This document shows positions 9,394 to 63,857 of a stretch of DNA of 64,000 nt, in pieces. A program made the translations under genes and the position numbers. The notes below the pieces were generated by a model. That model did no database searches. It was given only the letters and a program-made list of their open reading frames with translations, and was not told the origin of the DNA. The stretch spans positions 28,686-92,685 of the forward strand of contig CAWIQJ010000001.1 in assembly GCA_963838235.1 (NCBI GenBank), read 5' to 3'. This DNA is from an uncultured Pseudomonadota bacterium. GTDB taxonomy: Bacteria; Pseudomonadota; Alphaproteobacteria; Caulobacterales; Caulobacteraceae. Position 1 is the stretch's first letter, and each line of letters starts with the position of its first letter.

Positions 9394-10589
9394 ATGACCG
9401 ACAGCTTCCTGCCCTACGGCCGCCAGACCGTCGAGGACGACGACATCTTAGCCGTCGCCGCGGCGCTGCAGGCCGACCTGCTGACCACCGGCCCGCTGGT
9501 CGAGACAATTCGAGCGCGCCTTCGCCGAGGCGGTGGGCGCGCCGCACGCGGTGGTCTGCACCAGCGGCACCGCCGCCCTGCACATGGCGATGCAGGCGCT
9601 GGACCTGCAGCCCGGCGAAGTCTGCGTCGTGCCCACGATCACCTTCCTCGCGACCGCCAACGCGCGCGCGCTACGAGGGCGCCGAGGTGGTGTTCTGCGA
9701 CGTCGATCCTGAAACCGGCCTGATGACCGCAGAGCACCTGAGGCAGGCCCTGCCGCGCGCGCACGGCCGCCGCATCCGCGCCATCCTGCCGGTGCACCTG
9801 CGCGGCGACTCGGTGGCTCCGGACTGAGATCAAAGCCATCGCCGACAAGCTCGACGCGGCAGTGGTCGAGGACGCCTGCCACGCGCTGGGCTCGATGGCC
9901 GCGAAACGACCCGGTCGGCGCCGGCAGCCGAAAGCGCCATGGCCTGTTTCTCGTTCCATCCGGTGAAGACCATCTGCACCGGCGAGGGCGGGGCGGTGAC
10001 CACCCGCGACGAAGGCTTCGCGGCGCGGCTGCGGCTGGCGCGCAACCACGGCATGACGCGCGATCCGGCGGCCTTCCTGCTGGAGGACGAGGCGTTCAGC
10101 GACGGCGTCGCCAATCCCTGGTGGTACGAACAGGTCGAGCTGGGTTGGAACTATCGCCTGCCGGACGTGAACTGCGCGCTGGGTCTCTCGCAGCTGAAGA
10201 AGCTCGACCGCTTTGCCGCGCGTCGTCGCGAACTGGCGGCGCGTTATCGCGAGGTGTTGGCGCCGCTCGCCCCGCTGGTGCGCACGATCGACACGCCGCC
10301 CGGCGCCGATCCGGTGCTGCACCTGATGCAGGTGCGTGTCGACTTCGAAGCCGCCGGTCGTTCGCGGCGCGAGGTGATGGCGCGCTTGAAGTCCAAGGGC
10401 GTCGGAACCCAGGTGCATTACATCCCGGTGCACCGCCAGCCCTACTGGCGTGCGCGCTACAGCGCCCTGAACCTGCCCGGCGCCGACGCCTTCTACGCCC
10501 GGATCCTCAGCCTGCCCCTGTTCCCCGCCATGCACGACGACGATCCTGCGCGCGTGGCGCAAGCCCTTGCCGAAGCGCTCACTCCATGA
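9394..10589 (+). pseudogene. pseC: UDP-4-amino-4,6-dideoxy-N-acetyl-beta-L-altrosamine transaminase PseC/FlmB, frameshifted
   Basis: DegT/DnrJ/EryC1-type N-terminus MTDSFLPYGRQTVEDDDILAV...TSGTAALHMAM. C-terminal part FSFHPVKTICTGEGGAVTT is in another frame. ATGA stop/start overlap with pseI. Confidence 0.85.
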
Positions 10590-11678
10590 CCCGAGACCCT
10601 GAAGCCGAAATCGTCATCGCCGGCCGGCGCATCGGCCCCGCCCACGAACCCTTCGTGATCTGCGAACTGTCGGGTAACCACAACGGCAGCCTCGACCGCG
10701 CCCTGACCATGGTCGACGCCGCGGCGGCCACCGGCTGCGACGCGATCAAGCTGCAGACCTATACCGCCGACACCATCACCATGGACTGCGACCGGCCCGA
10801 GTTCCAAATCGACGGCGGCCCGTGGGACGGCCGCAGTCTGCACGAACTCTACGAAGAGGCGCACACGCCCTTCGAATGGCACGCGGCGCTGTTCGAGCGC
10901 GCCAGACAGCGCGGCGTGGCGATCTTCTCCACGCCCTTCGACGAGACCGCGATCGATCTGCTCGAAGACCTCGGCGCGCCGGCCTACAAGATCGCGTCCT
11001 TCGAGGCGGTGGACCTGCCGCTGATCGCCTATGCGGCGTCCAAGGGTAAGCCGCTGATCATCTCCACCGGCATGGCCTCGCCTGGCCGAGATGACCGCCG
11101 CGCGCGACACCGCATTGAAGGCCGGCGCGGCGGGCGTGGCGCTGTTGCACTGCGTGTCGAGCTATCCCGCCGCCCTGGAAGACGCCAACGTCCGCACCGT
11201 CGCCGACATGGCGCAACGCTTCACGTCGCCCATCGGCCTCTCCGACCATACGCCCGGAACCGCCGCCGCGGTCGCCGCGGTGGCGCTGCGGCGCCAGCGC
11301 TGATCGAGAAACATTTCACCCTGGCCCGCGCCGACGGCGGTCCCGACGCCGCCTTCAGCCTCGAACCCGACGAGTTCACCGCCCTGGTGCGCGACTGCAA
11401 GGCAGGCCTGGCGCGCGCTGGGCAAGGCGCACTACGATGTCCTCGGCTCCGAACGCGCCAGCCTGCAATTCCGCCGCTCGCTCTACGTTACCGCCGACGT
11501 CCGCGCCGGCGAATCCCTCACCCGCGCCAACATCCGATCCATCCGCCCAGGCCTTGGCCTGCCGCCGGGCGAACTGGACAAGATAATCGGCCGCACGGCA
11601 ACGCGCGACCTCACGCGCGGCGAACCCCTGGCGTGGGACATGGTGGACCAAAGCTCCACGCGCGGCGAAGCGGCCTGA
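10586..11678 (+). pseudogene. pseI: pseudaminic acid synthase PseI (NeuB family), frameshifted
   Basis: FVICELSGNHNGSLDRAL...IKLQTY...YKIASFE, then LHCVSSYPA...IGLSDHT and the SAF-domain end (IRSIRPGLGLPPGELDKIIG) lie in shifted frames. Confidence 0.85.
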
Positions 11679-11733
11679 GGCCACATCGCGGTAACGACCA
11701 GCAAGCGGACCCTCCGAATGTCCGCCAAGGGTG

Positions 11734-13313
11734 GAGGCTGTGTGAGAACGCGCTGGCCGCGCGGGTTCGTTAAGCTGAGTAACGCGCGAGACCCTCAGGC
11801 CCGCATCGCGTCGATCAGCGGCGCGACGCCGAGGATCGCGATCATCGCGCTTCAGATTGTAGGCCAGCACGTGGAGGCTCATCTCGGTTCGCGACCTTTT
11901 CGAGGGTCCGCGTCTTGAAGTGGGTCGCGCCCATCCAGGCCTTGAGCGTGCCGAAGGGGTGCTCGACGGTGGCTCGGCGGATGCGCATGGCGTCGGGCTG
12001 TGCGGTCGAGCCGCTCCTGCATGGCGTCGATGACCGCCTCGTGCTCCCAGCGCTTGATCCGCCGCTCCTTGCCGGCTGTGCACTCGGTCTTCAGCGGGCA
12101 GCCGGCGCAGCTGGCGTGGTCCAGTAGCGATGCAGCGTCATGCCCGTCTCTCGACCGTGGTGAAGCGACGCGGTCAGCGGCTCGCCGGCCGGGCAGCGGT
12201 AGACGTCCTCGTCGGGCAGGTAGACGAAGTCCTGCTTGCCGAAGCGGCCCTCGGCCTTGGCGCCCGAGGTCAGCGGCTTGGGCACGTAGGGCGTGACGCC
12301 GAGCGCCTCGCAGGCCAGCACCTCCTCGCCGCTCGAAGTAGCCGCGGTCGGCCAGCACCTCGAGCGCCTCGACGCCCATCGCCGCCTTGGCCTGCGCCGG
12401 CCATGTTCGCGAGCTGGCCGCGGTCGTGGCCGACGTTGGTGACCTCGTGGGCCACGATCAGGTGGTGCTCGGCGTCGACGGCGGCCTGGACGTTGTAGCC
12501 GACGACGCCCGCTGCCGCTTGCCGCTGGTGGCCATGGCCCGCGCGTCCGGGATCGGTCAGCGAGATCTGCTGGTCGGGCGCGGCCTGCACCCCGGCCTCC
12601 AAGCGCCTTGAACGCCGCCATCTGCTCGCGCAGCTGGGCGATCTTGTCCTTCAGCCGGCCGGACTTGGCCTGCGGCCAGCTCGCCCTCCTGGCGGTCGGC
12701 CGTCTCCAGCGCCGCCAGGTAGCGCGCGATGCTGGCCTCGACCTGCTCCATCCGCTGCTGCAGCTTGGCCCGGGTGAAGTTCTTGTCGCGCGCGTTCACC
12801 GCCTTGAACTTGCTGCCGTCGATCGCCGCCACCGCGTGGCGTGAACAGCTCCAGCCGCCGGCACAGCTCCACGAACTGCCGGCAGGTCGCCCGGATCGCC
12901 GGGCCGTTGTCCTTCCGGAAGTCGGCGATGGTCTTGAAGTCCGGCGCCAGCCGCCCCGTCAGCCACATCAGCTCGACGTTGCGCTGCGCCTCCCGCTCCA
13001 GCCGCCGGCTCGACGCGACCTGGTTGAGGTAGCCGTAGACGTAGATCTTCAGCAGCAGGCCCGGGTGGTAGCCCGGCCGGCCCGTCGCCGCCGGGCTCGA
13101 CACCCTCGAACCCCAGCGCTCCCAGGTCCAGCTCGTCGACGAACACGTCGATCACCCGGACCGGGTTCTCCTCGCGACACCTAGTCGTCCAGATATTCCG
13201 GAAGCAGAACGCCCTGCCGGCGATCCTCACCCTCGACGAAGCGCTTCATCGACAACCCCACAGCCTGCGTCGATGAGCGAGCCTAAGCTGCGTCGGCGTT
13301 TTCACACAGCCTC
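11734..13313 (-). mobile_element. IS5/IS1182-family insertion sequence (decayed)
   Basis: 18-bp imperfect terminal inverted repeats: gaggctgtgtgagaacgc at 11734-11751 versus the reverse complement of 13296-13313, with 1 mismatch. GGTG is present on both flanks (candidate 4-bp target duplication). The element encloses the transposase remnant. Confidence 0.7.
11795..13249 (-). pseudogene. IS5/IS1182-family DDE transposase with many frameshifts
   Basis: Fragments lie in all three minus frames: MKRFVEGEDRRQG, NPVRVIDVFVDELDLGALGFEGVEP, TGRPGYHPGLLLKIYVYGYLNQVASSRRLEREAQRNVELMWLTG, VGYNVQAAVDAEHHLIVAHEVTN, EVLADRGY, RIKRWEHEAVIDAMQERL, MSLHVLAYNLKR. Confidence 0.8.
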
Positions 13314-17915: not shown

Positions 17916-18704
17916 ATGATCCTGGCGGTGCTGCAGGCGCGGATGAGTTCGACCCGCCTGCCGGGCAAGGTGATGAAGCCGCTGCTCGGCGAGCCCATGA
18001 TCCTGCGCCAGCTCGACCGTCTGCGTCATGCGGATCGGATCGACCGGCTGGTGGTGGCGACCAGCGACCATACCTCCGACGACCCGCTTGCGGCCGGGCT
18101 GAGGGAGGCCGGCGTCGAGGTTCATCGCGGGCCACTCGACGACGTGCTGGCGCGGTTCGCCGGCGCCGTGCGCGCGTTCGGGCCGGCGTCGCACGTGGTG
18201 CGCCTGACCGCGGACTGCCCGCTCGCCGACTGGCGGGTGATCGACTCCTGTATCGATTTCCACCTCGACGGTAAGTTCGACTACACGTCCAACGACCTGG
18301 AGCGGACCTTTCCGCACGGCCTCGATGTGGAGGTGATGACCACGGCGGCGCTGGGCATCGCCGCGCGTGAAGCGTCGGCCGGGGAAGAGCGCGAGCACGT
18401 GACGCCCTTCCTCTATCGCCGGCCCGAACGGTTTCGGTTGGGGTCGCTGACCCAGGCCGTTGATCAGAGCGCCGAGCGATGGACGGTGGACACCCAGGCC
18501 GACTTCGACTTCGTGCGCCGGGTCTACGAGCGGCTCTATCCGACGAACGCTGCGTTCACCACCGAGGATGTGATGGCGCTCGACTTCCGCCACACGGCGG
18601 TGGACGCTTACGGTCGTATAGATATTACCGCAGAGAACCAGAGAAAGAAAAGCCGCAGAGACCGCAGGCGGTGCCGAATGTCCTCCATCGCGCGATTTTT
18701 TTAG
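17916..18704 (+). CDS. cytidylyltransferase (SpsF/COG1861 type; candidate CMP-nonulosonate synthetase of the pse pathway). The 3' end runs into a repeat element.
   Basis: MILAVLQARMSSTRLPGKVMKPL...LTADCPL motifs. The last ~27 codons (ITAENQRKKSRRDRRRCRMSSIARFF) are encoded by the family-2 repeat. Confidence 0.75.
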   Translation: MILAVLQARMSSTRLPGKVMKPLLGEPMILRQLDRLRHADRIDRLVVATSDHTSDDPLAAGLREAGVEVHRGPLDDVLARFAGAVRAFGPASHVVRLTADCPLADWRVIDSCIDFHLDGKFDYTSNDLERTFPHGLDVEVMTTAALGIAAREASAGEEREHVTPFLYRRPERFRLGSLTQAVDQSAERWTVDTQADFDFVRRVYERLYPTNAAFTTEDVMALDFRHTAVDAYGRIDITAENQRKKSRRDRRRCRMSSIARFF

Positions 18705-23101: not shown

Positions 23102-23112
23102 GACAGGTCTCA

Positions 23113-23224
23113 CTCAAGCGCTTTCAGGCGAAATGGAAGCCGGTTCGCCGCCCGGAAAGCGCGCTCAACTAAAGCGCTTTCAGGCGAAGTGGAAGCCGGT
23201 TCGCCGCCAGGAACGCGCGCTAAA
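23113..23224. repeat. tandem direct repeat, 2 x 56 bp (a third unit begins at 23225)
   Basis: ct(c/a)aagcgctttcaggcgaa(a/g)tggaagccggttcgccgcc(c/a)gga(a/-)... is repeated head-to-tail. Each unit contains a ggcgaa-N11-ttcgcc hairpin. Confidence 0.85.
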
Positions 23225-33668: not shown

Positions 33669-33835
33669 CCGTCATCCCCGGACTTGTTCCGGGGATCCAT
33701 GGTGGCCCTGACAGAAAGCGATGCGTGAGCGCTCGCGCGAACCGGCGCTGCGCGCGCAGTGGCTCGCTGGACGCTCGCTCAACCCGTCGGAGCTTGCGGA
33801 ACGATGGACCCCCGGAACAAGTCGGGGGGTGACGG
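33669..33835. repeat. MITE-like element, family 1, copy 2
   Basis: Arms ccgtcatccccggacttgttccggggatccat (33669-33700) and atggacccccggaacaagtcggggggtgacgg (33804-33835) are imperfect reverse complements. The core gcgtgagcgctcgcgcgaacc matches 5848-5868. Confidence 0.65.
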
Positions 33836-41048: not shown

Positions 41049-41209
41049 CAAGAAAACTGCAGAGATCGCAGAGAAAGAAAACCGCAGAGACCGCGGAGCG
41101 GTCCCAGATGTCCTCACCCTGGAGATCTTTGGAAGGTCGCTTCGCGACAAGCGCTCCCTCTCTGCGCCCTCTGCGGTTTTCTTTCTCCGCGATCTCTGCG
41201 GTTGAATCC
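41049..41209. repeat. MITE-like element, family 2, copy 2
   Basis: The left arm cgcagagatcgcagagaaagaaaaccgcagag matches the reverse complement of the right arm, with 1-2 mismatches. The core is shared with 18624-18770. Confidence 0.7.
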
Positions 41210-41520
41210 TTCGGAAGCCACTGCCGGGCCGCTAGGAGCAGGGTCCGGCGCACGCCCTGGGCCGGAAATACATTGAAAACCCCTGTGTTCGTCCGTACCT
41301 CGGCTGCGAAGACCGCCCCTGTTCATGGCAAGCGGCCTCCCCCAAGCGGCTAGACCGGTGTTGGCGCCGCGTTAACCAGTTGCGCGCCGATGAATACAAA
41401 TAGAGTGACGTTTAATATCTCGAATAGACACCCAGGACACGCCGGTGCGGCCGATTAACAACAGTCATGCTTGTTTGAGAATTACAGAAACGTGATGAGC
41501 AAAGCTGAGCCGCGGGACAT

Positions 41521-45817: not shown

Positions 45818-45992
45818 GAAGAAAAGATTGCCCACGTAAAACACGAAAAGCACGAACGCGACGACGCCAACCGAGGGGCAGCGCCAGATCATCGAATGCG
45901 CGCCTTTGGCGCGCGACAATCGGAATTCACGAAGGCGCGACAGCCGCGACCTGTTCGTGTCTTTTCGTGTTTTACGTGGGCAGTCTTTCTTC
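45818..45992. repeat. MITE-like element, family 3
   Basis: ~41-bp arms gaagaaaagattgcccacgtaaaacacgaaaagcacgaacg (45818-45858) and ctgttcgtgtcttttcgtgttttacgtgggcagtctttcttc (45951-45992) are near-perfect reverse complements. Central hairpin gcgcgcc-tttg-gcgcgc. Confidence 0.7.
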
Positions 45993-52620: not shown

Positions 52621-53367
52621 TTACGCCTCTTCTGCAGGCGCGGAGTCGCTTACGTCCGATTCGTAGTCCGCATCCTCGGCGTCGTGTTCCGCTTCCGCGA
52701 CATCCTCGGCATGCGAATCATCCGTGGACGCATCATCGTCTTCGAGCGGGCCGTCCTCCGCCGTGGTCTCGTGAGCGGGCTTCAGGGTCGCGCCGGCGGC
52801 GCCCGAGGCCTTGGCCTTCTTGGCGTCGTCGCGGGCGCTTCTTCTCGGCCGCCTTCTTCACCAGATGCGTCCAGCTCGAGCTGGGTCGACCAGGCCCAGC
52901 GTCACCGGGTCCACCGGCTTGATGTTGGACGAGTTCCAGTGGGTGCGGTCGCGCACCTGCTCGATGGTGGCCTTGGTGGTGCCGAGCAGTCTTGGAGATC
53001 TGGGCGTCGGTGACTTCCGGGTGGTTGCGGATGAACCAGGCGATGGCGTCCGGGCGGTCCTGGCGGCGCGACACCGGCGTGTAGCGCGGGGCCTTCTTGG
53101 GCGGCTTCAGCAGCTCCGCGTGGCGGCTGGCTTCTGCGCCTTCATCCGGTACTTGGGGTCGCCCTGGGCCCGGTCCAGCTCCTCGCGGGTGAGCTGGCCG
53201 TTGGCGATGGGGTCGGCGCCGCGGATGTCGCGCGCCACTTCGCCGTCGGCGATGCCCTTCACCTCCAGGGGGTGCAGGCCGCAGAAGTCGGCGATCTGCT
53301 CGAAGGTGAGGGAGGTGTTGTCGACCAGCCAGACGGCGGTCGCCTTGGGCATGAGAACGTCGGTCAT
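52621..53367 (-). pseudogene. DUF1013-domain protein with an acidic C-terminal tail, frameshifted at least twice
   Basis: MTDVLMPKATAVWLVDNTSLTFEQIADFCGLHPLEVKGIADGEVA / PRYTPVSRRQDRPDAIAWFIRNHPEVTDAQISK / THWNSSN...DPVTLGL / acidic tail ...EDDDASTDDSHAEDVAEAEHDAEDADYESD lie in different frames. Confidence 0.8.
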
Positions 53368-53479: not shown

Positions 53480-53773
53480 GTGAGGAGCGGCCGGTCCGCA
53501 GGACCGGCATGGAATCGACAAGGATGCGTTGCCTTTTTGACGCCGGGCGTCCCTGTGCTCCTCAAGGGTCTGCGACCCGAGTTTCGCACGAACGGTACGG
53601 ACGAGTTAGCCGTCCGACTGCGGCGCAGGCGGCGGGCCCTCAGTCTCACCATGGACCAAGCAGTCAAACTGATCCGGGTGCGGTGGGCGACGTACAGCGG
53701 ATGGAAAGAGGGGTGTGTGGAGCCAGCAGCGAGGTTCACCCCGGTGCTCAAATCGTTCGTGAGAGGTGGTTGA
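53480..53773 (+). CDS. small XRE-like HTH protein, module copy A
   Basis: GTG with an AAGGA RBS. NRQGCVAFLTPGVPVLLKGLRPEF block, then LAVRLRRRRRALSLTMDQAVKLIRVRWATYSGWKEGCVEP (HTH_XRE pattern). Paralogous to 59567 and 63445. Confidence 0.55.
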   Translation: MRSGRSAGPAWNRQGCVAFLTPGVPVLLKGLRPEFRTNGTDELAVRLRRRRRALSLTMDQAVKLIRVRWATYSGWKEGCVEPAARFTPVLKSFVRGG

Positions 53774-53839
53774 TCGCCCATGCGCCCTGGCGGGCGAGGC
53801 GTGTTCGACAATCCTATTTGACGAGCGCATCAAGTTGTT

Positions 53840-53865
53840 CTACATGTGTAGCACTACAAGCGTAG
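53840..53865 (+). promoter_or_regulatory. candidate BlaI operator (two TACA/TGTA dyads) overlapping the putative blaI promoter
   Basis: CTACA-TG-TGTAG (53840-53851) and CTACA-AG-CGTAG (53854-53865), 11-36 nt upstream of the blaI ATG. TTGACG at 53816, then 17 nt, then TACATG. Confidence 0.5.
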
Positions 53866-53875
53866 AGGAAGCTCG

Positions 53876-54310
53876 ATGTCAGGCCCCGCCCAACCGGTTC
53901 AAGCGTCGCCGAACGAGACCGCCGAGCGGGATCCGGTCACCCTCAGCGATCTGCAGATGGACGTGATGCGCACGCTCTGGCGCGGCGGCGAGCGCAGCGT
54001 GGGCGAGGTCGTCCAAGACCTGCAGGCCCAGGGACGCCGACTGGCCCACACCACCGTTTCGACCTTGCTCACCCGCCTGCAGAAGCGCGGCCTGGTCGCC
54101 GGCCGGCGCGACGGGAAGCAGTGGATTTATCGCGCCGAGGTCGACGAGCCGCGGGTCCGCCGCGCCATGGTCTCGGGCTTGCTTGGTTCGGTGTTCGGCG
54201 GCGACGCCCAGGCGCTCGTCGCCCACCTGATCCGGGAGGATGCGATCAAGACCGACGACCTGACCGCGATCCGCGACCTCTTGTCCGAAAAGGCGTCCGT
54301 CGATGACTGA
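53876..54310 (+). CDS. blaI: BlaI/MecI/CopY-family transcriptional repressor
   Basis: LSDLQMDVMRTLW.....SVGEVVQDL......AHTTVSTLLTRLQKRGLV winged helix. 8-nt overlap with the M56 gene. Confidence 0.85.
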   Translation: MSGPAQPVQASPNETAERDPVTLSDLQMDVMRTLWRGGERSVGEVVQDLQAQGRRLAHTTVSTLLTRLQKRGLVAGRRDGKQWIYRAEVDEPRVRRAMVSGLLGSVFGGDAQALVAHLIREDAIKTDDLTAIRDLLSEKASVDD

Positions 54311-55703
54311 CGTGGGTTCGTCGCTGTTCGCCTGGTTCGCCACGGCGTGGCTGCACGGGGCGGCGCTGTTCGTCCTGATCTGGGGCGCCGAGCGCCTCGG
54401 CCTGCTGCGCCGTCCCCTGATGCGACAGACCGCGTGGCGCGCGGTGCTGCTGGCGCCCCTGCTCAGCGCGGCGCTGCAGGTCTTCGTGCTCGGCGGTTCG
54501 CCGATCGGACGCGAGACGCTGACCCTCGCAACGCCCGCAACACCTTCTGTAACCGCTGATGCGCGCGCAGCGGCGCCGCCCGCCGTCGCAATGGTCGCCC
54601 CGGCGCAATCCGCTTCCATTGCCGCCGCAGAGCAACCCTCGGCTCGGCGCCGAGCGGCGCAGGACGCGCCGTCGTTCCTTGGCTTGGCGTGGCTTGGATG
54701 GATGGCGATCGCGGCGGCCTGGCTCGCGGTTCAGGCCGGACGGCTCGTGCTCTATCGGCGTGGTCTGGCGCCCGTCCGCGACGCGGACACCCTCGCCGTC
54801 GCCGAGCGCCTGCGCCGCCGCGCCGGATTGGCGGAGATCGTCTTGCTCGAACACCCGGACCTGACCAGTCCCCTGTCGGTGGCCCCATCCACGATCGTTC
54901 TGCCCGCCTGGACGCGGACCCTGTCGGAGCTTCAGCGTGCGGCCATGCTGGCGCACGAGGCGCACCATCTTCGCCGCCGAGATCCGCAATGGCGCGGCCT
55001 GACGCTCGTGGCGGCGTTGGCGCTGCTCGCGCCCTGGGCCAAGGTCGCCCTCGACCGCCTGGAGGCGCTCTCCGAGGACGCCTGTGACGCTTGGTCGGCC
55101 GCGCAGGTCGGCGGCGGAGCGCCTCTGGCCGAGTGCCTGTTCGCCTGCGTCGAGCACGGCCTCGACCGTCGCACGCCGATGCTCGCCGCCGCCATGGCCG
55201 TGCCGCAATCACCGGTCGTCGATCGCGTGCGCCGTCTCGTGGAGGATCGCGTGCAAGGCTTTGAGAGCGACGCAGGACGCGAACGTGCAGCCTTTGCGAT
55301 CGTGCTCGGGCTCGCGGTCATCGCCCTTCCCGACATCTCACTCGGACATGGCTCTGTGTCGCCGTCGCCGGCCGTCGCCGGTGTGCCCCAGGTCGCGACC
55401 GCCCGCCTCGCTGCACCATCGTCGGTCGCCCCTGCAGTGCGACGCGCCACGCACCGATCGCCGCCGCACGTCGTCGCCCGGCCGGTCGCCTCGGCGCAGA
55501 CTGCGACCACCGCCGTCCCGGCGATCCGCGCGCAGCTCGCCACAGCCGCACAACCGGCGGTTCCGGCCCAAGAAGCAACGCCCGCGATCAAGCCCGTTCC
55601 GGCGTCGCCTGCGGTCGCGGCGTTTGAGCCAGTGACCAAGCCGGCGGCGCCGGCGCAATTCGTTCTCGGCAAATCCATCCTCGGTGGTGGCGATGTCATC
55701 TGA
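54303..55703 (+). CDS. M56-family (BlaR1-like) membrane metallopeptidase lacking a penicillin-binding sensor domain
   Basis: N-terminal TM helices, HEAHH (HExxH) motif, SEDACD. The C-terminal ~170 aa is Ala/Pro-rich low complexity rather than a transpeptidase-like sensor. Confidence 0.8.
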   Translation: MTDVGSSLFAWFATAWLHGAALFVLIWGAERLGLLRRPLMRQTAWRAVLLAPLLSAALQVFVLGGSPIGRETLTLATPATPSVTADARAAAPPAVAMVAPAQSASIAAAEQPSARRRAAQDAPSFLGLAWLGWMAIAAAWLAVQAGRLVLYRRGLAPVRDADTLAVAERLRRRAGLAEIVLLEHPDLTSPLSVAPSTIVLPAWTRTLSELQRAAMLAHEAHHLRRRDPQWRGLTLVAALALLAPWAKVALDRLEALSEDACDAWSAAQVGGGAPLAECLFACVEHGLDRRTPMLAAAMAVPQSPVVDRVRRLVEDRVQGFESDAGRERAAFAIVLGLAVIALPDISLGHGSVSPSPAVAGVPQVATARLAAPSSVAPAVRRATHRSPPHVVARPVASAQTATTAVPAIRAQLATAAQPAVPAQEATPAIKPVPASPAVAAFEPVTKPAAPAQFVLGKSILGGGDVI

Positions 55704-55788
55704 CCGGCTTCGCGAGCGGTCGCCGCCGGGCGCCTGACCCGACAGCCTGCTCGTTCAAAATCCTGATCTCACACTTTGGAGTACGGAC

Positions 55789-57663
55789 ATGCGTCTCGTG
55801 CCGTCGATAGCTTGCGCCCTGGCAACCGCGCTGGCCCTGACCGCCAGCATCGATCCCACACGCGCCGCCGACACAACCTCGCCCGCCGCGGCGAGCGCGG
55901 CGGACCTGACCGGGCTGTGGAAGGCGCGAATTCGCTTCGGGCCGGACGCCCATGGGCCGCTGATGCTGATGAAGTCCCCTGACGGATGGATCGCCGACTT
56001 CATGGGCCGGCGCCTGACGGTGCGCCGCGATGGCGACGTCCTGACGTTCGCCCTGCCCAACGACCAGGGATCATTTCGCGCACACCTCGAACCCGACGGC
56101 GGCGTGTCGCACGGACAATGGTATCAGCCGAAGAGCGCGATCAATCCGTGGTTCGCCACCGGCGTGCGCTTTCACGCCGACGGTGCCGGCCGCTGGAGCG
56201 GAGACGTGCGGCCGGTGGACGATGTGGTGACCTTCTATCTGAAGATCGCGCCGCGGTCGGACGGATCGCTCGGTGTCTTCATCCGCAACCCCGAGCGCAA
56301 CCTTGGCGTCTTTTTCAAGGCTGATCACATCGAGCGCGCTGGCGACGAGGTGCGGGTGATCGGCCGTGGTCCAGGCGACGCCCAGGACGCGGTGTTGATG
56401 AGCGGCGTCTTCGATCCGACCCAGGGCGATCTGCGACTCTATCTGCCGGCCCGCGGCTGGAGCTTCGACTTTGGGCGCGAGGGCGACGACAGCGACTTCT
56501 ATCCGCGCGGCCGCGCCCCCCAGCCCTACCACTATGCGCCGCCACCGGCGCGCGACGACGGCTGGCCGGTGGGCACGCTGGAAGAGGCGGGCATCGATCG
56601 CAAGGGCATGGAGGCCTTCGTCGAGACCATCCTGCACACGCCGATGGATTCCCTCGAAGCCCCTCAGGTGGACGGGATTCTGATCGCCCGCCACGGCAAG
56701 CTGGTGTTCGAGGAATATTTCCACGGTGAGAGTCGCGACCGGCTGCACGAGACCCGCTCCGCCGGCAAGAGCCTGACCGCCACCCTGGTGGGCGCGACGA
56801 TCCAGGCAGGCCTGCCGGTGAAGATGTCCACGCCGGTCTATCAGACCCTTTACGACGGCCGTCCGCCAGCCGACCTCGATCCCCGCAAGCGCGCCATGAC
56901 GTTGGAGAACCTGGAGACCATGAGCTCCGGCTACTGGTGCGACGACGGCGACCCTAAGGCGCCCGGCAATGAAGACACCATGACCGACCAATCCGCCGAT
57001 CCCGACTTCTGGCACTACACGCTCAAGGTCCCCATGGCCTACGATCCGGGGCGGATCGCGGTCTATTGCAGCGCCAATCCGAATCTCGCCATCGGGGTTC
57101 TCACCCATGCCACCGGCGAATACGCCATGGACCTCTACGACCGGCTGCTGGGTGATCCGCTCGGCATCGACCAGGACGTCTGGTTTGTTTCGCCCTCCAA
57201 ACAGCCCTACGGCGGCGGCAGCGCGCGGATGACGCCGCGCGACTACATGAAGCTCGGCCAGTTGATGCTGAACCGCGGGACGTGGAAGGGGCGTCGCGTC
57301 CTCGACGCCGACTGGGTCAAACGCGCGTCGAGCCCGATCTATGACCTGAACGGCATCAAGTACGGCTATTCCTGGTGGGGGATCGACTATCCGTACAAGA
57401 ACCGCACCGTCCACGCCTTCTTCGCCGGCGGCAACGGCGGCCAAGGGGTGATGGTGATCCCCGAGCTCGACATGGTGGTCGCCACCTATGCGGCGAACTT
57501 CGCCAGTCACACCGGGTTGGAGATTCAGCAGGGCTATGTCCCACGCTACATCCTGCCCGCGGTGCGGGAGAGGGGCGACCGGACGGACGCGGCCGTGGCG
57601 CCGCGCGAATACAAGGTCATCTACGGCCGCCGCCAACCCCCGCCGCCGTCGTTGGCGCAATGA
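55789..57663 (+). CDS. exported serine hydrolase (beta-lactamase/PBP4* family) with an N-terminal ~280-aa domain of unknown function
   Basis: Signal peptide. SAGK (SxxK) in TRSAGKSLTATLVG. Paralogue of the next gene. Confidence 0.85.
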   Translation: MRLVPSIACALATALALTASIDPTRAADTTSPAAASAADLTGLWKARIRFGPDAHGPLMLMKSPDGWIADFMGRRLTVRRDGDVLTFALPNDQGSFRAHLEPDGGVSHGQWYQPKSAINPWFATGVRFHADGAGRWSGDVRPVDDVVTFYLKIAPRSDGSLGVFIRNPERNLGVFFKADHIERAGDEVRVIGRGPGDAQDAVLMSGVFDPTQGDLRLYLPARGWSFDFGREGDDSDFYPRGRAPQPYHYAPPPARDDGWPVGTLEEAGIDRKGMEAFVETILHTPMDSLEAPQVDGILIARHGKLVFEEYFHGESRDRLHETRSAGKSLTATLVGATIQAGLPVKMSTPVYQTLYDGRPPADLDPRKRAMTLENLETMSSGYWCDDGDPKAPGNEDTMTDQSADPDFWHYTLKVPMAYDPGRIAVYCSANPNLAIGVLTHATGEYAMDLYDRLLGDPLGIDQDVWFVSPSKQPYGGGSARMTPRDYMKLGQLMLNRGTWKGRRVLDADWVKRASSPIYDLNGIKYGYSWWGIDYPYKNRTVHAFFAGGNGGQGVMVIPELDMVVATYAANFASHTGLEIQQGYVPRYILPAVRERGDRTDAAVAPREYKVIYGRRQPPPPSLAQ

Positions 57664-59438
57664 TCGGAACACCTCACATGCGCTCCGCACTCATCCTGTT
57701 CTTCGCCTTCGTGATCGGGTTCCCTGGATCCGTGCTCGCGCAGGCCGCACCGCCGGCCGCGGCGTCCGACCTCGCGGGCCTATGGAAGGCCAAGCGGTGG
57801 TTCGGGCCCGAGGCGCACGGCCCGCTGATCCTGCGCCGGGAGGCCGGGCGCTTCGCCGCGGAGATGGCTGGTCATGTCGTCCCCGTCCGCGCCGACAAGG
57901 GCGCGCTCGCCTTCGAGCTGCCCGACGGGGAGGGCGCTTTCAAAGGTCGGCTCGATGCGAGCGGCGCAGTCCTCGGTCACTGGTATCCGCCGGCTTCGTC
58001 CGCGGTGCTGATCGGATTTAGGTACGCTTCGCCCGTTCGCCTGGAACCTGCGGGACCTGGTCGCTGGGATGGGGTGGTCGCGCCGGTCGAGGACACCTTC
58101 ACTTTTTACCTCCTTGCCACATCGCAGGCGGACGGCTCGATGGGCGTGGTGCTGCGCAACCCCGAGCGCGACTACGGCAATCAGCTCAAGGTCCACGTCC
58201 TGGTGCGCGACGGCGATGTCGTGAAACTCATCGGCGTGCGCGGCGGCAAGGATGTGGAGGTGGCGCGCGGCCGCTTCGACGCGGACAACCAGGTGCTCAC
58301 CCTCGCGTTTCCCGGTCGCGGCGGCTGGTCCTACGACTTCGTCCGCGACGGCGACGACAGCGACTTCTATCCACGCGGCAAACACCCGGGCCGCTACGTC
58401 TATCACCCGCCGCCGGCGCGCGACGACGGATGGCCGGTAGGCACGTTGGAGGAAGCGGGCATCGACCGCGCCGCCATGGAGCGCTTCGTCCAATCGGTCA
58501 TCGACGAACCGATGGAGCCCGTGGACGCCCACCAGATTCACGGCCTGCTAATCGCCCGTCATGGCAGGCTGGTGCTCGAGGAATACTTCCACGGCGAGAA
58601 CCGCGACCGCATGCACGACACGCGCTCGGCCAGCAAAAGCCTCACCGCGACGCTCGTGGGCGCGGCTATGGAGGCCGGCGCGCCGCTCAAGCTCTCCACC
58701 CCGGTCTATCAGTTGATGAACGGAGGGACGTTTCCACCGGATCTGGAGCCGCGCAAACGGGCGATGACGCTGGAGAACCTCTTGACCATGACCTCGGGCT
58801 ATTTCTGCGACGACAACAATGACGCCGCGCCCGGCAACGAGGTCGGCATGCTCGATCAGACCGCCGAGCCCGACTATCTGCGTTTCACTCTGAGCCTTCC
58901 CATGGCTTTCGATCCGGGCAAGACGGCGATCTATTGCAGTATCAATCCGAACCTGGCGCTGGGCATGACGGGACGCGCGCTGGGCGAGGATCCCATGGCC
59001 AGCTTCGATCGCATGCTCGGCCGCCCGCTGAAGATCACGAGCTACGGCTGGATGCTCGATCCGTCCGGGCAGCCCTACGGCGGCGGCAGCGTGCAGATGC
59101 TTCCGCGCGACTTCATGAAGCTGGGCCAGCTGATGCTGAACGGCGGGACCTGGCAGGGCCGTCGGCTGCTCGACCGCGACTATGTGCGCAAGCTGAGCTC
59201 GACCCTCTACACCATAACCGGTCGAGGCTACGGCTTCGGCTGGTGGACGGTGGAATACCCCTACAGAGGACGCACGGTGCATGCCTTCTTCGCGGACGGC
59301 CGGGGCGGTCAGTGGGTGATCGTGATTCCGGAGTTGGACCTGGTCGCCGCCGCCTACAGCGGCAACTACTTCACTAAGGGGCAGAGGGTGTTCCAGCAGG
59401 AGTTCGTGCCCAACGTCATCCTGCCGGCCGTCCACTAG
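57660..59438 (+). CDS. exported serine hydrolase (beta-lactamase/PBP4* family), tandem paralogue
   Basis: ATGA overlap with the upstream gene (alternative ATG at 57678, followed by a signal peptide). SASK in TRSASKSLTATLVG. Collinear similarity to 55789..57663 throughout. Confidence 0.85.
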   Translation: MIGTPHMRSALILFFAFVIGFPGSVLAQAAPPAAASDLAGLWKAKRWFGPEAHGPLILRREAGRFAAEMAGHVVPVRADKGALAFELPDGEGAFKGRLDASGAVLGHWYPPASSAVLIGFRYASPVRLEPAGPGRWDGVVAPVEDTFTFYLLATSQADGSMGVVLRNPERDYGNQLKVHVLVRDGDVVKLIGVRGGKDVEVARGRFDADNQVLTLAFPGRGGWSYDFVRDGDDSDFYPRGKHPGRYVYHPPPARDDGWPVGTLEEAGIDRAAMERFVQSVIDEPMEPVDAHQIHGLLIARHGRLVLEEYFHGENRDRMHDTRSASKSLTATLVGAAMEAGAPLKLSTPVYQLMNGGTFPPDLEPRKRAMTLENLLTMTSGYFCDDNNDAAPGNEVGMLDQTAEPDYLRFTLSLPMAFDPGKTAIYCSINPNLALGMTGRALGEDPMASFDRMLGRPLKITSYGWMLDPSGQPYGGGSVQMLPRDFMKLGQLMLNGGTWQGRRLLDRDYVRKLSSTLYTITGRGYGFGWWTVEYPYRGRTVHAFFADGRGGQWVIVIPELDLVAAAYSGNYFTKGQRVFQQEFVPNVILPAVH

Positions 59439-59566
59439 GGGAGAGTTCAGTCTACAACCCTTGCCGGCTCAAGAAATTGGCGGAGAAGCAACTCCTCAAT
59501 CCTTTCCGCTGAGAGCCTCCACTGCCGAGTCCTGGGTGGCTCACTAGGTCATCGGCGGGCCGGTTT

Positions 59567-59833
59567 TTGCCTGCAATCGATCGACAAGGATACGTTGCCT
59601 TTTTGACGCCGGGCGTCCCGGTGCGTTTGAACGGCTTTCGGCCTGAGTTTCAAAACGAAATCGGCGATAGCCTTTCGGTGCGACTATGTAAACGGCGGCG
59701 GGCGCTCGGGTTTACCATTGAGCAAGCGGCGGCGTGGGTGCGGGTGCGTAGAGCCACTTTCAGCGGTTGGGAGAAGGGACAGGTCAATCCCGCAGCGCGC
59801 TTCCTGGAGGCGCTCGAACAGTTCTTAAAGTGA
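59567..59833 (+). CDS. small XRE-like HTH protein, module copy B
   Basis: TTG start. DRQGYVAFLTPGVPVRLNGFRPEF, then LSVRLCKRRRALGFTIEQAAAWVRVRRATFSGWEKGQVNP. Confidence 0.6.
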   Translation: MPAIDRQGYVAFLTPGVPVRLNGFRPEFQNEIGDSLSVRLCKRRRALGFTIEQAAAWVRVRRATFSGWEKGQVNPAARFLEALEQFLK

Positions 59834-59948
59834 GAGGCGGGTAATGGCACGGTGCTGGACGCCGTGACCATAACGTTCTGATCACAACTCGGTTGAGCGA
59901 GGTAGTTAGCCCTAATCCGATGCTTCGGTGCGCCGCATCAGCTTAGAA

Positions 59949-60662
59949 TCAATCAGGAACGGGCGTCGTCTCCGGACCGTCGATGAGCGGGTCGAGGCCG
60001 CAGCCTGCGGCGAGCCGCTCACTGTCCCGGATCAGGATCGTATCGCCTTGGACGGTGACGCCATGCATTTGAAGAGCGGACAGTGCTCGCGAAAAGCTCT
60101 CGCGGGTCATTCCAAGTTCTGAAGCGATGAGGTTTTTTTCGTAAGGCAAAACGGCTCGATGCGGCGTGCCCTGCCGCTTGGACAGCGCGAGCAGGTAGCA
60201 CCCGGCGCGTTCGGCGGTGGTGCGGAGTTTGAGGTTCTTAATCTGCCGAACCAGACGTCGGAACTGTCCTGCGAGACTCGCGATTACTTCCTGCGCCAGC
60301 AAGGGTTGGTGCAGAACGGCGCGGCGGAACACGCCGGCGTTGATCAAGAGCAGCCGAGAAGGTTCTGGCACGCGCGCTCGCATGAGATAGGGCGCTCCCG
60401 TAACGACGGCGGCCGGGATGACGAGTTCCGGCGGTTCCACCACCTCTATCAACACCTCACGTCCGGTGCTTGATCGACCGAGGAGGTGCGCCGACCCGGT
60501 CAGGACGACATGCTGGAAGGTCGGCGTGTCGCCTTGTTCGAACAGGATCGTTCCCGGTTTCACCGCGTGAATGAGAGCATTTTCGAGCAATTTCGCCCGG
60601 CTCGCAGCGGGCAGAGCAGCCAGCAGGGGCAGGCTTTCAATGTCTGGGCCCGGCTTTCGCAT
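59949..60662 (-). CDS. Crp/Fnr-family transcriptional regulator (Dnr/NnrR-like by context)
   Basis: Start taken at MRKPGPDIESL. cNMP-binding-like beta-roll and C-terminal HTH (LIASELGMTRESFSRALSAL). Divergent from qNOR. Confidence 0.85.
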   Translation of the reverse strand: MRKPGPDIESLPLLAALPAASRAKLLENALIHAVKPGTILFEQGDTPTFQHVVLTGSAHLLGRSSTGREVLIEVVEPPELVIPAAVVTGAPYLMRARVPEPSRLLLINAGVFRRAVLHQPLLAQEVIASLAGQFRRLVRQIKNLKLRTTAERAGCYLLALSKRQGTPHRAVLPYEKNLIASELGMTRESFSRALSALQMHGVTVQGDTILIRDSERLAAGCGLDPLIDGPETTPVPD

Positions 60663-60721
60663 GTCGTCTAACAGCTCCGAATCGTGAGTGGAGCGTCGCC
60701 CCCGACAGATCGTAACGCCAC

Positions 60722-60737
60722 TGTGATATATATCACG
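60722..60737. promoter_or_regulatory. CRP-like palindrome TGTGA-N6-TCACg
   Basis: The perfect 14-bp palindrome GTGATATATATCAC lies in the crp/fnr-norZ divergent intergenic region. Confidence 0.45.
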
Positions 60738-60744
60738 GATCGCG

Positions 60745-60758
60745 TTGATATAGATCAA
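60745..60758. promoter_or_regulatory. FNR/Dnr box TTGAT-N4-ATCAA
   Basis: Exact consensus half-sites (gTTGATatagATCAAc), about 90 nt upstream of the norZ ATG. Confidence 0.6.
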
Positions 60759-60841
60759 CGCTTGAAGAGCTGGTCGTCGCCAGGTTGCGGCAGGACGCTG
60801 GTCGGAACTGCGGACACTCGGCCCGGGAGGACAAGGGGAAA

Positions 60842-63184
60842 ATGGACACGGACACGCGCGCGAGCGCCGCTGAACACCCGACGGTAGACCCGGTCAGCAA
60901 CATCCTCAAATGGGTGCTCCTGCTCGTGGCGATCAGCACGTTCGCCTGCCTCGGCTGGGCCACATGGCAGACATATACCGCCGCCCCGCCCCAGCCGGAC
61001 CGGTATGTCGCCACCGACGGACAAGTCCTGATGACCAACGACGACATCGTGGCCGGCAAGGCTGGATTCCAGCGCGCCGACCTTATGGACTACGGCAGTC
61101 TCTACGGCATGGGGTCCTATTTCGGCGAGGACTACACCGCATCGAATCTCGTGGCCCTGGCGACCCTGACCCAGAGCAACATCGCCGCCGCCCGATTTGG
61201 GCGGCCTTTTGCCCTCCTGAAGCCCGAACAAACGTGGCTCGTCCACACTTCGATGCAGGCAGAGCTTCAGGGGCTGGACCTCACGGCCAAACAGGCCACG
61301 GTCCCGCCGGCCCTCGCCGCCGCCATCACCACCTTGCGCGGACAGATTAGCACCCAGCTACTGCACGACGATTTCGCCAAGGGCTGGACGCACGCCGCCA
61401 GCCTGGATGCGGCCAGCGCGGCGCAGACCGCCGACTTCCTGATCTATTCCTCGCTGACAACCGTTGCACGGCGACCAGGGAGCCAGACCTCCTGGACTCA
61501 AAACTGGCCGTTCGAACCCTTGGTGGGCAATGCGCCGTCGGCCTCCACCTTCCTCTGGACCTGGGCCAGCATCGGATTCACGTTCCTGGCCATGGGCATG
61601 GTGCTGTTCGTCTATGAGCGTTACCTCAACACACCCGACAATGCGCCGATGGACCCGGTTCTGGCCAAGTTCCGGCCATTGACGTCCAGCCAGCGCAAGA
61701 CCGGGAAATACTTCCTGGTCGTAGCCCTGGTGTTCCTGCTGCAGATTCTCGTGGGCGCGATCATGGCCCACTACTACTCCGAGCGCGCAGACTTCTACGG
61801 CCTGGCCGTAGACAAGTTCCTGCCGTTCAATTTCCTGCGCGACGTCCACACCCAGACGCCGATCGTTTGGATCGGCCTCTCCTGGATCGCGGCGGCGCTC
61901 TTTCTCGCGCCAGCGATCAGCGGACAAGAGGCAAGGTGGCAGGGTCTGTTGGTCGATGTGCTGTTCTACGTCACCCTCGCGGTCGTGGTTGGCGCGCTGG
62001 CCGGCGACTACTTCGGGGTGATGGGATACATCGGGAAGGGCTGGTTCTGGTTCGGCAACCAGGGCCTATCCTATATTCAGTTGGGCCGATTCTGGCAGAT
62101 CGGCTTCTTCTCCGGCCTGGTTATCTGGAGCCTCTTGGTGTTCCGCGCGATGTGGCCGACGCGCTTGATGCTGTCCCAGGCGACACGTCAGTTCTGGAGC
62201 GGCGCGATCCGGCTAGAGAATCTCTTGTGGGCGTCGACGATAAACATCGCGCTCCTCTACGCCTTCGGCATGATCCCGCTTACCGGGATCGAGAATTCGT
62301 TCACCATCACCGATTTCTGGCGCTGGTGGGTGGTTCACCTTTGGGTCGAGCAATCGTTCGAGTTTTTCGCTGCGGCGATGAGCGCCTACTTGCTGATGGC
62401 CATCGGCCTGGTGTCGCGCAAGCTGGCCGAGCGAGCGGTCTATTTCGAGCTGATCCTGATCTTCCTGGGAGGCGTGCTGGGCACCGGCCACCACCTCTAC
62501 TGGGTCGGCGGCCCGGATCTCTGGGTGCCGCTGGGATCGATCTTCTCGTTCATAGAGGTCTTGCCGCTGGTGCTGTTGATTCTCGATGCGATCCGCCATC
62601 GCCAAATGATCAAGAGCCAGACCGAGTTCAAATACGGCCTCGCCTATACCTATATCCTCGGCGCGGCGTTCTGGAATTTCGTGGGTGCCGGCGTCTTCGG
62701 CGGCGGCGTGCTGAACGCGCCGCTCGTGAACTACTACGAGCACGGAACGTTCCTGACGCTGAACCATGCGCACACCGCGCTTTTCGGTGCCTTCGGCCTC
62801 CTGGGTCTTGGCCTGATCTATTTTTGCCTTCGCTACATGGCCGGCGAGAACGCCAAGTTCGGCGAAAGGCTCGGACGCTGGGCTTTTTGGCTCTACAATG
62901 GCGGCTTGGCGCTTTGGATCGTCTTCAACTTCTTCCCGATCGGCTGGGCACAGCTGGAGGCGGTCTACAGCCACGGTTACGCCTACGCCCGCAGTGCGGC
63001 CTTCTATGAAACCACCCTGTTCTGGCAGTGGATGCGCTTCCCAGGCGACGTGGTCTTCGCACTCGGGGCCTTGCTGATGGCATGGGACTTCGTCATCAAG
63101 CTGCGGCCAATCTTCCCGCGTTTCATCGAGCGGGCGATCCCAGGTCGCCGCGGCGATCCCAGAGCGACCGACGCGGCGTCATGA
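60842..63184 (+). CDS. norZ: quinol-dependent nitric oxide reductase (qNOR, NorZ), large single-subunit type
   Basis: 780 aa. N-terminal TM plus periplasmic extension fused to a NorB/heme-copper oxidase core (multiple His ligands, e.g. HLWVEQSFEFF, GTGHHLYW, LNHAHTALFGAFG). Confidence 0.9.
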   Translation: MDTDTRASAAEHPTVDPVSNILKWVLLLVAISTFACLGWATWQTYTAAPPQPDRYVATDGQVLMTNDDIVAGKAGFQRADLMDYGSLYGMGSYFGEDYTASNLVALATLTQSNIAAARFGRPFALLKPEQTWLVHTSMQAELQGLDLTAKQATVPPALAAAITTLRGQISTQLLHDDFAKGWTHAASLDAASAAQTADFLIYSSLTTVARRPGSQTSWTQNWPFEPLVGNAPSASTFLWTWASIGFTFLAMGMVLFVYERYLNTPDNAPMDPVLAKFRPLTSSQRKTGKYFLVVALVFLLQILVGAIMAHYYSERADFYGLAVDKFLPFNFLRDVHTQTPIVWIGLSWIAAALFLAPAISGQEARWQGLLVDVLFYVTLAVVVGALAGDYFGVMGYIGKGWFWFGNQGLSYIQLGRFWQIGFFSGLVIWSLLVFRAMWPTRLMLSQATRQFWSGAIRLENLLWASTINIALLYAFGMIPLTGIENSFTITDFWRWWVVHLWVEQSFEFFAAAMSAYLLMAIGLVSRKLAERAVYFELILIFLGGVLGTGHHLYWVGGPDLWVPLGSIFSFIEVLPLVLLILDAIRHRQMIKSQTEFKYGLAYTYILGAAFWNFVGAGVFGGGVLNAPLVNYYEHGTFLTLNHAHTALFGAFGLLGLGLIYFCLRYMAGENAKFGERLGRWAFWLYNGGLALWIVFNFFPIGWAQLEAVYSHGYAYARSAAFYETTLFWQWMRFPGDVVFALGALLMAWDFVIKLRPIFPRFIERAIPGRRGDPRATDAAS

Positions 63185-63444
63185 ACATTGACTCACTTCG
63201 CGACGGCTGACAGAGGCTCCAGTTAGGTCGCCTTCTGCCGGAAGCCCCTGGGCTCGATCCAAACGCTCATGTCGTCGCTGGACCTCAGGCCAGCACGCGA
63301 GTGCAGCGTGCGGCTGAAGGGGTTCGTGTCCTGCCGAAAGCTCTCGTGCGAGCGGACGTTCTCGATCGTGCGGCGGCCAGAACTACCTACTGGCGGGCCA
63401 CACCGGATGCTGGCCGGCTCAGTCAGTAATCGGCGGGCCTTTTT

Positions 63445-63669
63445 TTGCCTGCAATCAACCCACAAGGATACGCTGCCTTTTTGACGCTTGGCGTCCCAGT
63501 TCGCTTGGAAGGCATCAGACCTGAATTTCCGTGCAAAGAGTGGTCCCCCCAAGTCTCAGCCAGCGAGGAGGCCACGACGACACGCAAACCCTTGCGCGGC
63601 GTCCAAGCACATGCCCGCCTCAGGCGACCCAGCCCCGAGTGTGAATTTGTCGGGGCCGCGTGCGGCTGA
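63445..63669 (+). pseudogene. XRE-like module copy C (N-terminal block conserved, HTH part degenerate)
   Basis: TTG start and the upstream 45 nt are shared with copy B. NPQGYAAFLTLGVPVRLEGIRPEF is conserved. Downstream sequence shows only a faint residual resemblance to the HTH, in any frame. Confidence 0.4.
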
Positions 63670-63857
63670 GGGCACTCCCTCACCAACGCGTTCGTCCGTA
63701 GCCAAGTGCGCAGGGTTTCGAAATAGGTCGGAATGAAACGGTTCAGGTGGCGCAGCTCCCTGGGGCCCCCGGTCCGCGCCGCCCACATCGTGTGCTTAGC
63801 CCTGGGAATGATCGCGATGGCGTAATTCCTGTCGCCGGGACCGGCCGTCGCGGCCTG

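Follow-up and report, generated by a model that had tools for sequence, protein, structure and literature searches.

A repeated regulator module probably marks the joints of small serine-recombinase-type cassettes in a Caulobacteraceae genome

Why do three copies of one small regulator gene module lie in the same orientation around two unrelated sets of accessory genes? The question arises in a 64,000-nucleotide (nt) stretch of DNA (the window) from an uncultured member of the Caulobacteraceae (contig CAWIQJ010000001.1), where a first-pass annotation had described three modules, A, B and C, related to XRE regulators with a helix-turn-helix (HTH) domain. It suggested that the copies were recombination scars or landing pads that assemble a modular island, or regulators travelling with their cargo. 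As a whole, that interpretation is partly supported. From comparison with related loci, we conclude with a probability of roughly two in three that the region consists of small integrative cassettes, non-autonomous and arranged in tandem, of the large serine recombinase (LSR) type. The copies would then be recombination joints, as had been supposed, and each regulator gene would stand at the start of its cassette.

The repeat structure was observed directly. A 72-nt block occurs three times on the same strand (A, 53514-53585; B, 59580-59651; C, 63458-63529; repeat family D3), with spacings of 6066 nt from A to B and 3878 nt from B to C. B is 83% and C 74% identical to A, which is far beyond chance. 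B and C share about 55 nt of additional 5' sequence (59525-59651 versus 63403-63529, 79% identity; repeat family D4), and a separate alignment of the copies agrees with both repeat families. When three or fewer mismatches were allowed, a 15-nt core pattern matched 10 times against 2.95 expected; with two or fewer, it matched the three copies only. A six-frame scan with a hidden Markov model (HMM) of the family revealed no fourth copy in the other 53 kb of the window. The modules are as follows.

53480-53773, plus strand: module A, an XRE-family open reading frame (ORF) of 97 amino acids with a GTG start, spanning the predicted attL-like left junction of the array (family HMM, E=1e-31)
59567-59833, plus strand: module B, an XRE-family ORF of 88 amino acids with a TTG start, which begins inside the P arm, the predicted right end of the preceding cassette, and crosses an attP-like joint (Pfam)
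63445-63540, plus strand: module C, a remnant with the joint and the N-terminal block only, its HTH deleted or replaced (HMM columns 4-34, E=5e-5)

Pfam, the family HMM and alignment all bear out the earlier description of A and B as running on into an XRE HTH and of C as decayed there. Module B matched HTH_31 (1.2e-7, 32.3 bits, cut-off 27) and HTH_3 (1.9e-5, 25.1 bits, cut-off 23). Module A had no Pfam match at E<0.01, yet fitted the family HMM as listed; its protein is 59% identical to that of B and 58% to the homologue P0001. AlphaFold2 modelled residues 36-87 of B as an HTH of five helices with a predicted local confidence (pLDDT) above 90, and residues 1-30 without secondary structure at pLDDT 51-65; on these grounds we rejected the N-terminal block as a folded domain. 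The five-helix XRE-type feature is thus present in B and, by family HMM, in A; C is without it. The HMM match of C spans 63448-63540, and alignment detected no DNA similarity to A or B beyond ~63540. The end previously given for C (~63736) was therefore too generous, since C matches only the N-terminal block. C is the start of a third unit that extends past the window end.

To separate constraint on DNA from constraint on protein, we compared codons in all six pairs of A, B, C and the corresponding module of L001, the only close relative. The first eight codons of the block (QGYVAFLT, 24 nt, ..CA-AGGAT-RCGYTGCCTTTTTG) have no third-position differences in any pair. The next 14 codons (9-22) have 4-9 per pair, with dN/dS ~0.1-0.2, and the HTH part has pS 0.62-0.76; in the codons near the QGYVAFLT segment, synonymous change is near saturation. 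The third-position bias that had been taken as purifying selection on the sense frame is thus real for codons 9-22, but the first 24 nt are conserved as DNA. Codon choice in the family shows the same constraint: among 67 distinct modules, the Phe codon of the motif is TTT in 53 of about 60 cases, TTC prevailing at other conserved Phe columns (52 to 10 and 38 to 7), and the Leu codon is TTG in 22 of 25. The identical 14-nt string TCGCGTTGCCTTTT also occurs in two reading frames in relatives: 22 unique modules read it as R-V-A-F-L and 49, one base off, as V-A-L-P-F or V-P-F-C. Because no pair shows synonymous change and the motif occurs in two frames, we read the first 24 nt as a DNA site. Judged from these comparisons, ..RCGYTGCCYTTTTG.. 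is conserved as DNA, and the 14 codons downstream and the HTH evolve as protein.

A word-indexed search of 5.8 billion clusters returned P0001 (72% identity) as the single close homologue, and phmmer against 1.8 billion representatives gave 293 matches, about one-third of the top 150 aligning from the N-terminal block on. Members found by profile search came from Caulobacteraceae, Sphingosinicella, Reyranella and Bradyrhizobium metagenome-assembled genomes (MAGs) and were annotated only as XRE or helix-turn-helix regulators; the family includes single-HTH proteins and forms with two to four tandem HTH repeats. The block, which could not previously be placed in any family, therefore heads a mostly alphaproteobacterial XRE subfamily with hundreds of members, though without a Pfam name of its own. 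An exact DNA pattern scan of a genome collection gave four chance-like matches, three of them in unrelated phyla; the Sneathiella match, when inspected, was not a module. A metagenome scan with the A/B/P0001 alignment found no relatives. Searches by tblastn yielded two weak, HTH-only Streptomyces plasmid matches for module B against plasmids, and nothing for a family member against phages and plasmids; IMG/VR returned nothing to the DNA pattern and one weak, HTH-only match to the protein. Without real matches in these plasmid, phage and IMG/VR searches, a phage or plasmid origin is unsupported.

We mapped the relatives in 80 metagenome loci and several assembly loci, and many of them proved to sit at breakpoints of comM. 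Several members carry ComM/YifB residues (..VTFPARVQLVAAMNPC) in frame directly before the block, and modules of relatives begin exactly at the comM junction, after the codons AAMNPC; at locus L006, comM passes directly into a two-HTH module after codon 351. The 5' part of comM is fused in frame to the module at 13 loci, and the module is abutted by the inverted 3' part of comM at 11. Where enough 5' flank was available, most other modules have short comM-like remnants in front of them, and a few have a palindromic arm. Both orientations join comM at one dinucleotide (AACCCG-TG-CCGCTGCGG), which one class shows as TG and the other as CA. For these junctions we also considered a Tn7-like end with an initial TGT, an idea dropped after the LSR and the dyad attP described below had been found.

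Two side observations concern these loci. In L007 (positions 1-2200, the same as L010) comM is intact, and its codons 321-351 recur ~0.6 kb downstream as a near-identical copy of 93 nt that precedes a module; it looks as if a 1.06-kb patch, comprising the comM 3' part and a small membrane protein, has restored a formerly interrupted comM. Cargo downstream of comM-type modules in L090, L091 and L006 often consists of defence or conflict genes, among them a UvrD-helicase gene adjoining an OLD-like TOPRIM ATPase gene, an LmuB_C-domain gene (a Lamassu component), a ThiF/E2/ubiquitin-like set, Fic, caspase-like peptidases, nucleases and RHS toxins.

Relatives also supplied a candidate enzyme. In locus L062, comM is interrupted by a complete insertion of 3.5 kb, one end of which is occupied by the module and the other by the gene for a Resolvase+Recombinase protein of 520 amino acids. 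Its junctions read ..GACCGCAGCGG-CA-AAGTC-GCGTTGCCCTTT.. and ..AAAGGGCAACGC-ACAAA-CA-GGGGTTCATCGCC.., and the attP (the phage-type attachment site) rebuilt from the two ends contains a 12-bp dyad without mismatch, GCGTTGCCCTTT, whose halves are each set 5 nt from a central CA. Such a perfect inverted repeat around a central CA is the form expected of an LSR site. Perfect dyads of 12-13 bp were found in L062 and L094, and in L057 the LSR C-terminus is followed directly by the module across a palindromic site. A Resolvase+Recombinase gene is present in L062, L025, L057, L094 and L097, and searching with the L062 protein gave over 5600 homologues at E up to 1e-30. Among the top 120 of them, 10 are in-frame LSR::XRE fusions of 580-680 amino acids that span attP; at their C-termini, these proteins fit the module HMM, with the block included (..GGRKATELH-RRVAFLPFVRVCLK.., E 1e-17 to 1e-27), and in L094 the palindrome GCAAAAGAGCAAC..GTTGCTCTTTTGC lies inside the LSR::XRE ORF. 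In fusion-type relatives, as far as their sequences tell, attP thus sits within the recombinase-regulator reading frame, so that integration would separate the recombinase from the regulator part. Fusion-type relatives have conjugation-type genes as neighbours. Mg-chelatase/comM is the commonest target of predicted site-specific LSRs, accounting for 12.4% of them (PMC10083194).

The interior of the L062 element contains, after the module, a DprA-like gene (683-1579; DNA_processg_A, E=1e-56) and then a zincin gene. In natural transformation, DprA reportedly recruits ComM (PMC12012524).

Taking the geometry of the L062 attL/attR pair, we placed the predicted joints of the window array as follows.

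53514-53539, plus strand: core of junction A, ATCGA-CA-AGGAT-GCGTTGCCTTTTTG, with the predicted crossover CA at 53519-53520 followed by the P' half-site (L062 geometry)
59525-59586, plus strand: predicted right end (P arm) of cassette E1, up to the predicted CA at 59585-59586 (79% identical to 63403-63464)
63403-63464, plus strand: predicted right end (P arm) of cassette E2, up to the predicted CA at 63463-63464 (repeat family D4, alignment)

Each cassette would run from a P' half-site (AGGAT-RCGYTGCCTTTTTG, directly after the central CA) to a P arm of about 60 nt that ends ..TGCAATCRAYCSA-CA, with CA as the probable crossover dinucleotide. Junction A (53519/20) would be attL-like, a host-side arm joined to P', and junctions B (59585/86) and C (63463/64) attP-like, at each of which the P arm of a cassette would meet the P' of its successor, which is what serial insertion beside a resident cassette produces. 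E1 would then comprise 6066 bp with a blaI/blaR1/hydrolase set and E2 3878 bp with crp/fnr and a nitric oxide reductase gene; E3 would begin at 63465 with a truncated module that has lost its XRE gene. In this model the XRE-family gene starts inside the attachment site, and its first codons would be the recombinase binding site. An LSR encoded elsewhere in the genome would move the cassettes in trans. The XRE protein may regulate the element, to judge from its fold and position, and the 5' end of its gene would change with the integration state. The predicted target of the B joint acting as attP is GGATCGACAA-N4-TTGTCGATCC, the putative joint motif with a role in recombination is GTTGCCTTTTTG, and at the right end of the array we would expect a P arm followed by ..CGCTTTGTCGATCC-like sequence. 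A comM remnant in the window joints was considered and rejected: C (GCAATCAACCCACAAGG) resembles GCGATGAACCCGTGTGA, a match that is too short. The in-frame translation of C, AINPQGY, likewise resembles the LSR tail ATNPQRG over too short a stretch to be trusted.

L001 provides a discrete insertion whose ends share a short core and whose target can be reconstructed; the right end of the window array lies beyond position 64000. L001 carries one recombinase-less cassette of ~2.5 kb (10040-12556), its module directly after ndk and its cargo a DUF4440 protein and a hydrolase. The right end (12516-12556) is 94% identical to the 5' flank of B over 35 nt (12516-12550), and in a five-way alignment its similarity to the B and C flanks ends exactly at ..ATCGACAA, GACAA. 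Both ends carry the identical 9-nt core GATCGACAA as a direct repeat, and the outer flanks, when joined, give a palindromic target, GGGATCGACAA-CGCT-TTGTCGATCCC; the locus has a similar but empty site, AGGATCGACAA-ATCA-TTGTCGATCCT, 5.6 kb beyond it (18161-18197). The ~45 nt upstream of B and C, previously described as shared non-coding sequence with an unusual start, are indeed shared, but they represent the right end of the preceding cassette, which recurs in L001, and not a leader or promoter. Same-strand module arrays with recombinase-less cargo also occur in L008 (a Caulobacteraceae MAG, three modules in 8 kb) and in L006.

These observations bear on the plainest alternative, that the modules are ordinary, locally duplicated XRE paralogues whose block is a shared operator, promoter or leader, with no mobile cassettes. 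In its favour, A and B are intact and purifying selection acts on them, XRE proteins commonly autoregulate, and the block holds a small palindrome, GACGC-N3-GCGTC, which, as had been noted, occurs in all three copies. The form GACGCC-G-GGCGTC, which had been suggested as an operator, is limited to the window and L001, however, and is not retained in the wider family. Neither a promoter-like site (promoter scan) nor an Rfam match (E up to 1) was found at the copies. Duplication of paralogues also fails to account for a motif kept in two frames, for relatives at comM breakpoints with an LSR, and for a B/C 5' flank that recurs as the far end of the 2.5-kb insertion in L001 and ends at one exact base. 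We regard this alternative as very improbable.

Scans of the region for Rfam families and transfer RNAs gave no relevant match, the latter finding no tRNA at the copies, and an RNA motif or a tRNA-linked island was rejected on that basis. The promoter/terminator scan yielded nothing but a hairpin in the B P arm that weakly resembles a terminator.

Several points weigh against the LSR-type array, and some of them favour a rival with the same cassette and joint architecture in which the enzyme is a tyrosine recombinase or another one, the window type having diverged from the comM/LSR type. Neither phmmer with the L062 LSR as query nor a scan for catalytic motifs revealed an LSR in the 64-kb window or in L001. 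Symmetry between the window-type P arm and P' is poor, the mirror image being weak and confined to GCAA..ATC, and the L001 cassette has at its two ends a common 9-nt core, GATCGACAA, that is compatible with a tyrosine recombinase as well. comM is in addition the landing site of Tn6022 and Tsy, the latter being tyrosine-recombinase elements with a small HTH gene (Faure et al. 2023, PMC10293859). Those elements, however, hit the Walker B region, via TnsF, and not the AAMNPC codons (PMC10293859), unlike the elements described here, which break comM ~40 codons downstream of Walker B, at AAMNPC, with a serine recombinase. The window P' has its motif at the right distance from a CA, and that motif, ACGTTGCCTTTTTG, together with its distance to the GVP codons, matches the LSR attP dyad of L062, L094 and L057. 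Moreover, the module protein belongs to the family that is fused to LSRs, and no Phage_integrase gene lies beside any module in the annotated loci. A different enzyme is therefore unlikely in our view.

Other points tell against the LSR-type array without favouring that rival. No comM was found in the window or in L001, and the attB (the target site) rebuilt from L001 is symmetric about a point 3-4 nt off the predicted CA. Finally, the left arms of A and L001 are alike for ~45 nt from the GTG start codon onward, a likeness of the 5' arm of A that is common to L001 only and that a simple host-arm reading leaves unexplained, the neighbours being different (TrcR/DUF1013 versus ndk). Within this arm, 5' of the joint, lies a hairpin, GCCGGTCC-GCA-GGACCGGC in A and GCCAGCGC-GAA-GCGCTGGC in L001. 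Its two versions (window 53483-53511, L001 10004-10032) have fully compensatory differences in an 8-bp stem, and the hairpin falls within the predicted first 11 codons of the ORF.

The cargo of both intervals, as assigned by Pfam, matches the gene content given in the first-pass annotation.

53876-54310, plus strand: Penicillinase_R, blaI-type repressor
54303-55703, plus strand: Peptidase_M56, BlaR1-like
55789-57663, plus strand: beta-lactamase-fold protein 1
57675-59438, plus strand: beta-lactamase-fold protein 2
53876-59438, plus strand: cargo of cassette E1 as a whole, a blaI-like repressor, a BlaR1-like M56 peptidase and two paralogous hydrolases
59949-60758, minus strand: Crp/Fnr regulator
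60785-63184, plus strand: qNOR, quinol-type nitric oxide reductase
59949-63184, both strands: cargo of cassette E2 as a whole, crp/fnr and qNOR, with G+C below the surroundings (Pfam, composition)

The reported drop in G+C at the junctions is present but modest: the joints have values of 0.59-0.64, the A-B interval 0.66-0.74 and the B-C interval 0.58-0.67, low throughout. In a further alternative, the joints are real att sites and the intervals are resident genes trapped between independently inserted, decayed elements. It draws on the want of a recombinase in either interval, on the decay of C and on the G+C of E1, which is like that of the flanking chromosome. It is opposed by the G+C of E2, clearly below the surroundings, and by the joints themselves: at B and at C, a P arm passes directly into a P', so that each interval has exactly the ends of one element, and the two P arms are 79% identical. 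In L001, moreover, a recombinase-less unit with the same ends has inserted into a target. We consider trapped resident genes distinctly unlikely and continue to favour a tandem array of LSR-type cassettes.

Some further features of the window were recorded. The two E1 beta-lactamase-fold genes (55789-59438) form a tandem duplication (register 1868 nt) and are 72-79% identical at the DNA level, their paralogy being shown by repeat families D1, D2, D5 and D6. Left of A, a TrcR/DUF1013 gene (52700-53367, minus strand) is split into at least three reading frames, the first matching Pfam profile positions 1-49 of 139 and the remainder lying in different frames. Either the gene is a pseudogene or indel errors arose in the assembly. 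Inverted-repeat elements of the motif CCGCTCATCCCGGCGAAYGCCGGGA lie at 5735-5982 and 33669-33835 and, in L001, at 12620-12650, just right of the cassette; the motif appears to be a dispersed repeat common to both organisms. A tandem 56-nt repeat (91% identity) and two long inverted repeats (47-nt arms at 87% and 28-nt arms at 96%) were found at 23112-23223, 41055-41211 and 45823-45988.

How does such an array relate to known systems? Read in this way, it varies an already known type of genomic island and does not constitute a new system. The nearest are the LSR elements of comM/yifB (PMC10083194): relatives of the module lie at comM breakpoints, one of them in a complete element with a Resolvase+Recombinase gene and a dyad attP, whereas the window array lies outside comM and has no recombinase. 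That study contains no description of an XRE gene starting inside attP or of arrays of recombinase-less mini-cassettes. The Wolbachia prophage sr1WO, also from an alphaproteobacterial host, has an LSR, an attB in a Mg-chelatase gene and terminal single-domain HTH_XRE genes opposite the LSR end; other WO types have two-domain HTH_XRE genes, and a secondary intergenic attB is known for WOCauB3 (PMC9203015). The likeness of its XRE genes to the window family is one of position and domain type. WO is a tailed prophage of 20-60 kb, unlike the units here, which measure 2.5-6 kb and carry metabolic, resistance or defence cargo with no phage genes. We found no phage structural modules, such as those between the LSR and the HTH_XRE end, in the cargo of the window, L001, L006, L008, L062, L090 or L091, which has metabolic, signalling or defence functions.

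Islands of the SCCmec type, including pseudo-SCC elements, consist of head-to-tail cargo elements between att-containing direct repeats, many of them without ccr and mobilized by a recombinase in trans. They differ in host phylum (Firmicutes), target (rlmH) and recombinase clade, and no regulator gene lies over the site. Integron arrays are alike in their same-orientation, recombinase-less cassettes, serially inserted and each ending in a recombination site. The window showed no IntI (Pfam on local genes) or attI, and its joints lack attC-type inverted repeat structure; there is no attC with a GTTRRRY core, and these cassettes are multi-gene, occupy both strands and begin with a regulator gene. 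In elements of the SSV1 type, attP lies inside a tyrosine integrase gene, and splitting it inactivates the integrase. The attP within the LSR::XRE ORF of the relatives resembles this arrangement, except that only the C-terminal XRE extension would be detached. In the papers searched, we found no description of an XRE gene beginning inside an att site, of an attP in an LSR::XRE frame, of 2.5-6-kb recombinase-less cassettes or of a palindromic target other than comM in this lineage.

One extension of the LSR-type array can be put forward tentatively, as possible though rather unlikely. It is an integron-like cargo system whose units, bounded by P' and P arms, would be moved in trans by a serine recombinase encoded elsewhere, with attP, in the parent elements, in an LSR::XRE ORF. 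Integration would then detach the XRE part, in one class placing it in frame with ComM residues 1-351, and the regulator, through its expression and form, would thereby report the integration state.

For this organism, the triple repeat becomes a map of exact cassette borders, as predicted here, in an island whose cargo includes a bla-type sensor/hydrolase set and a nitric oxide reductase. For the family, the signature RCGYTGCCYTTTTG followed by an XRE gene marks a widespread, unnamed class of comM-targeting elements in soil Alphaproteobacteria, often with defence genes. If movement in trans and an attP that splits the fusion prove true, the system would be a serine-recombinase counterpart of integron cargo shuffling, equipped with a sensor of the integration state, and would be a source of natural pairs of att site and recombinase for genome engineering.

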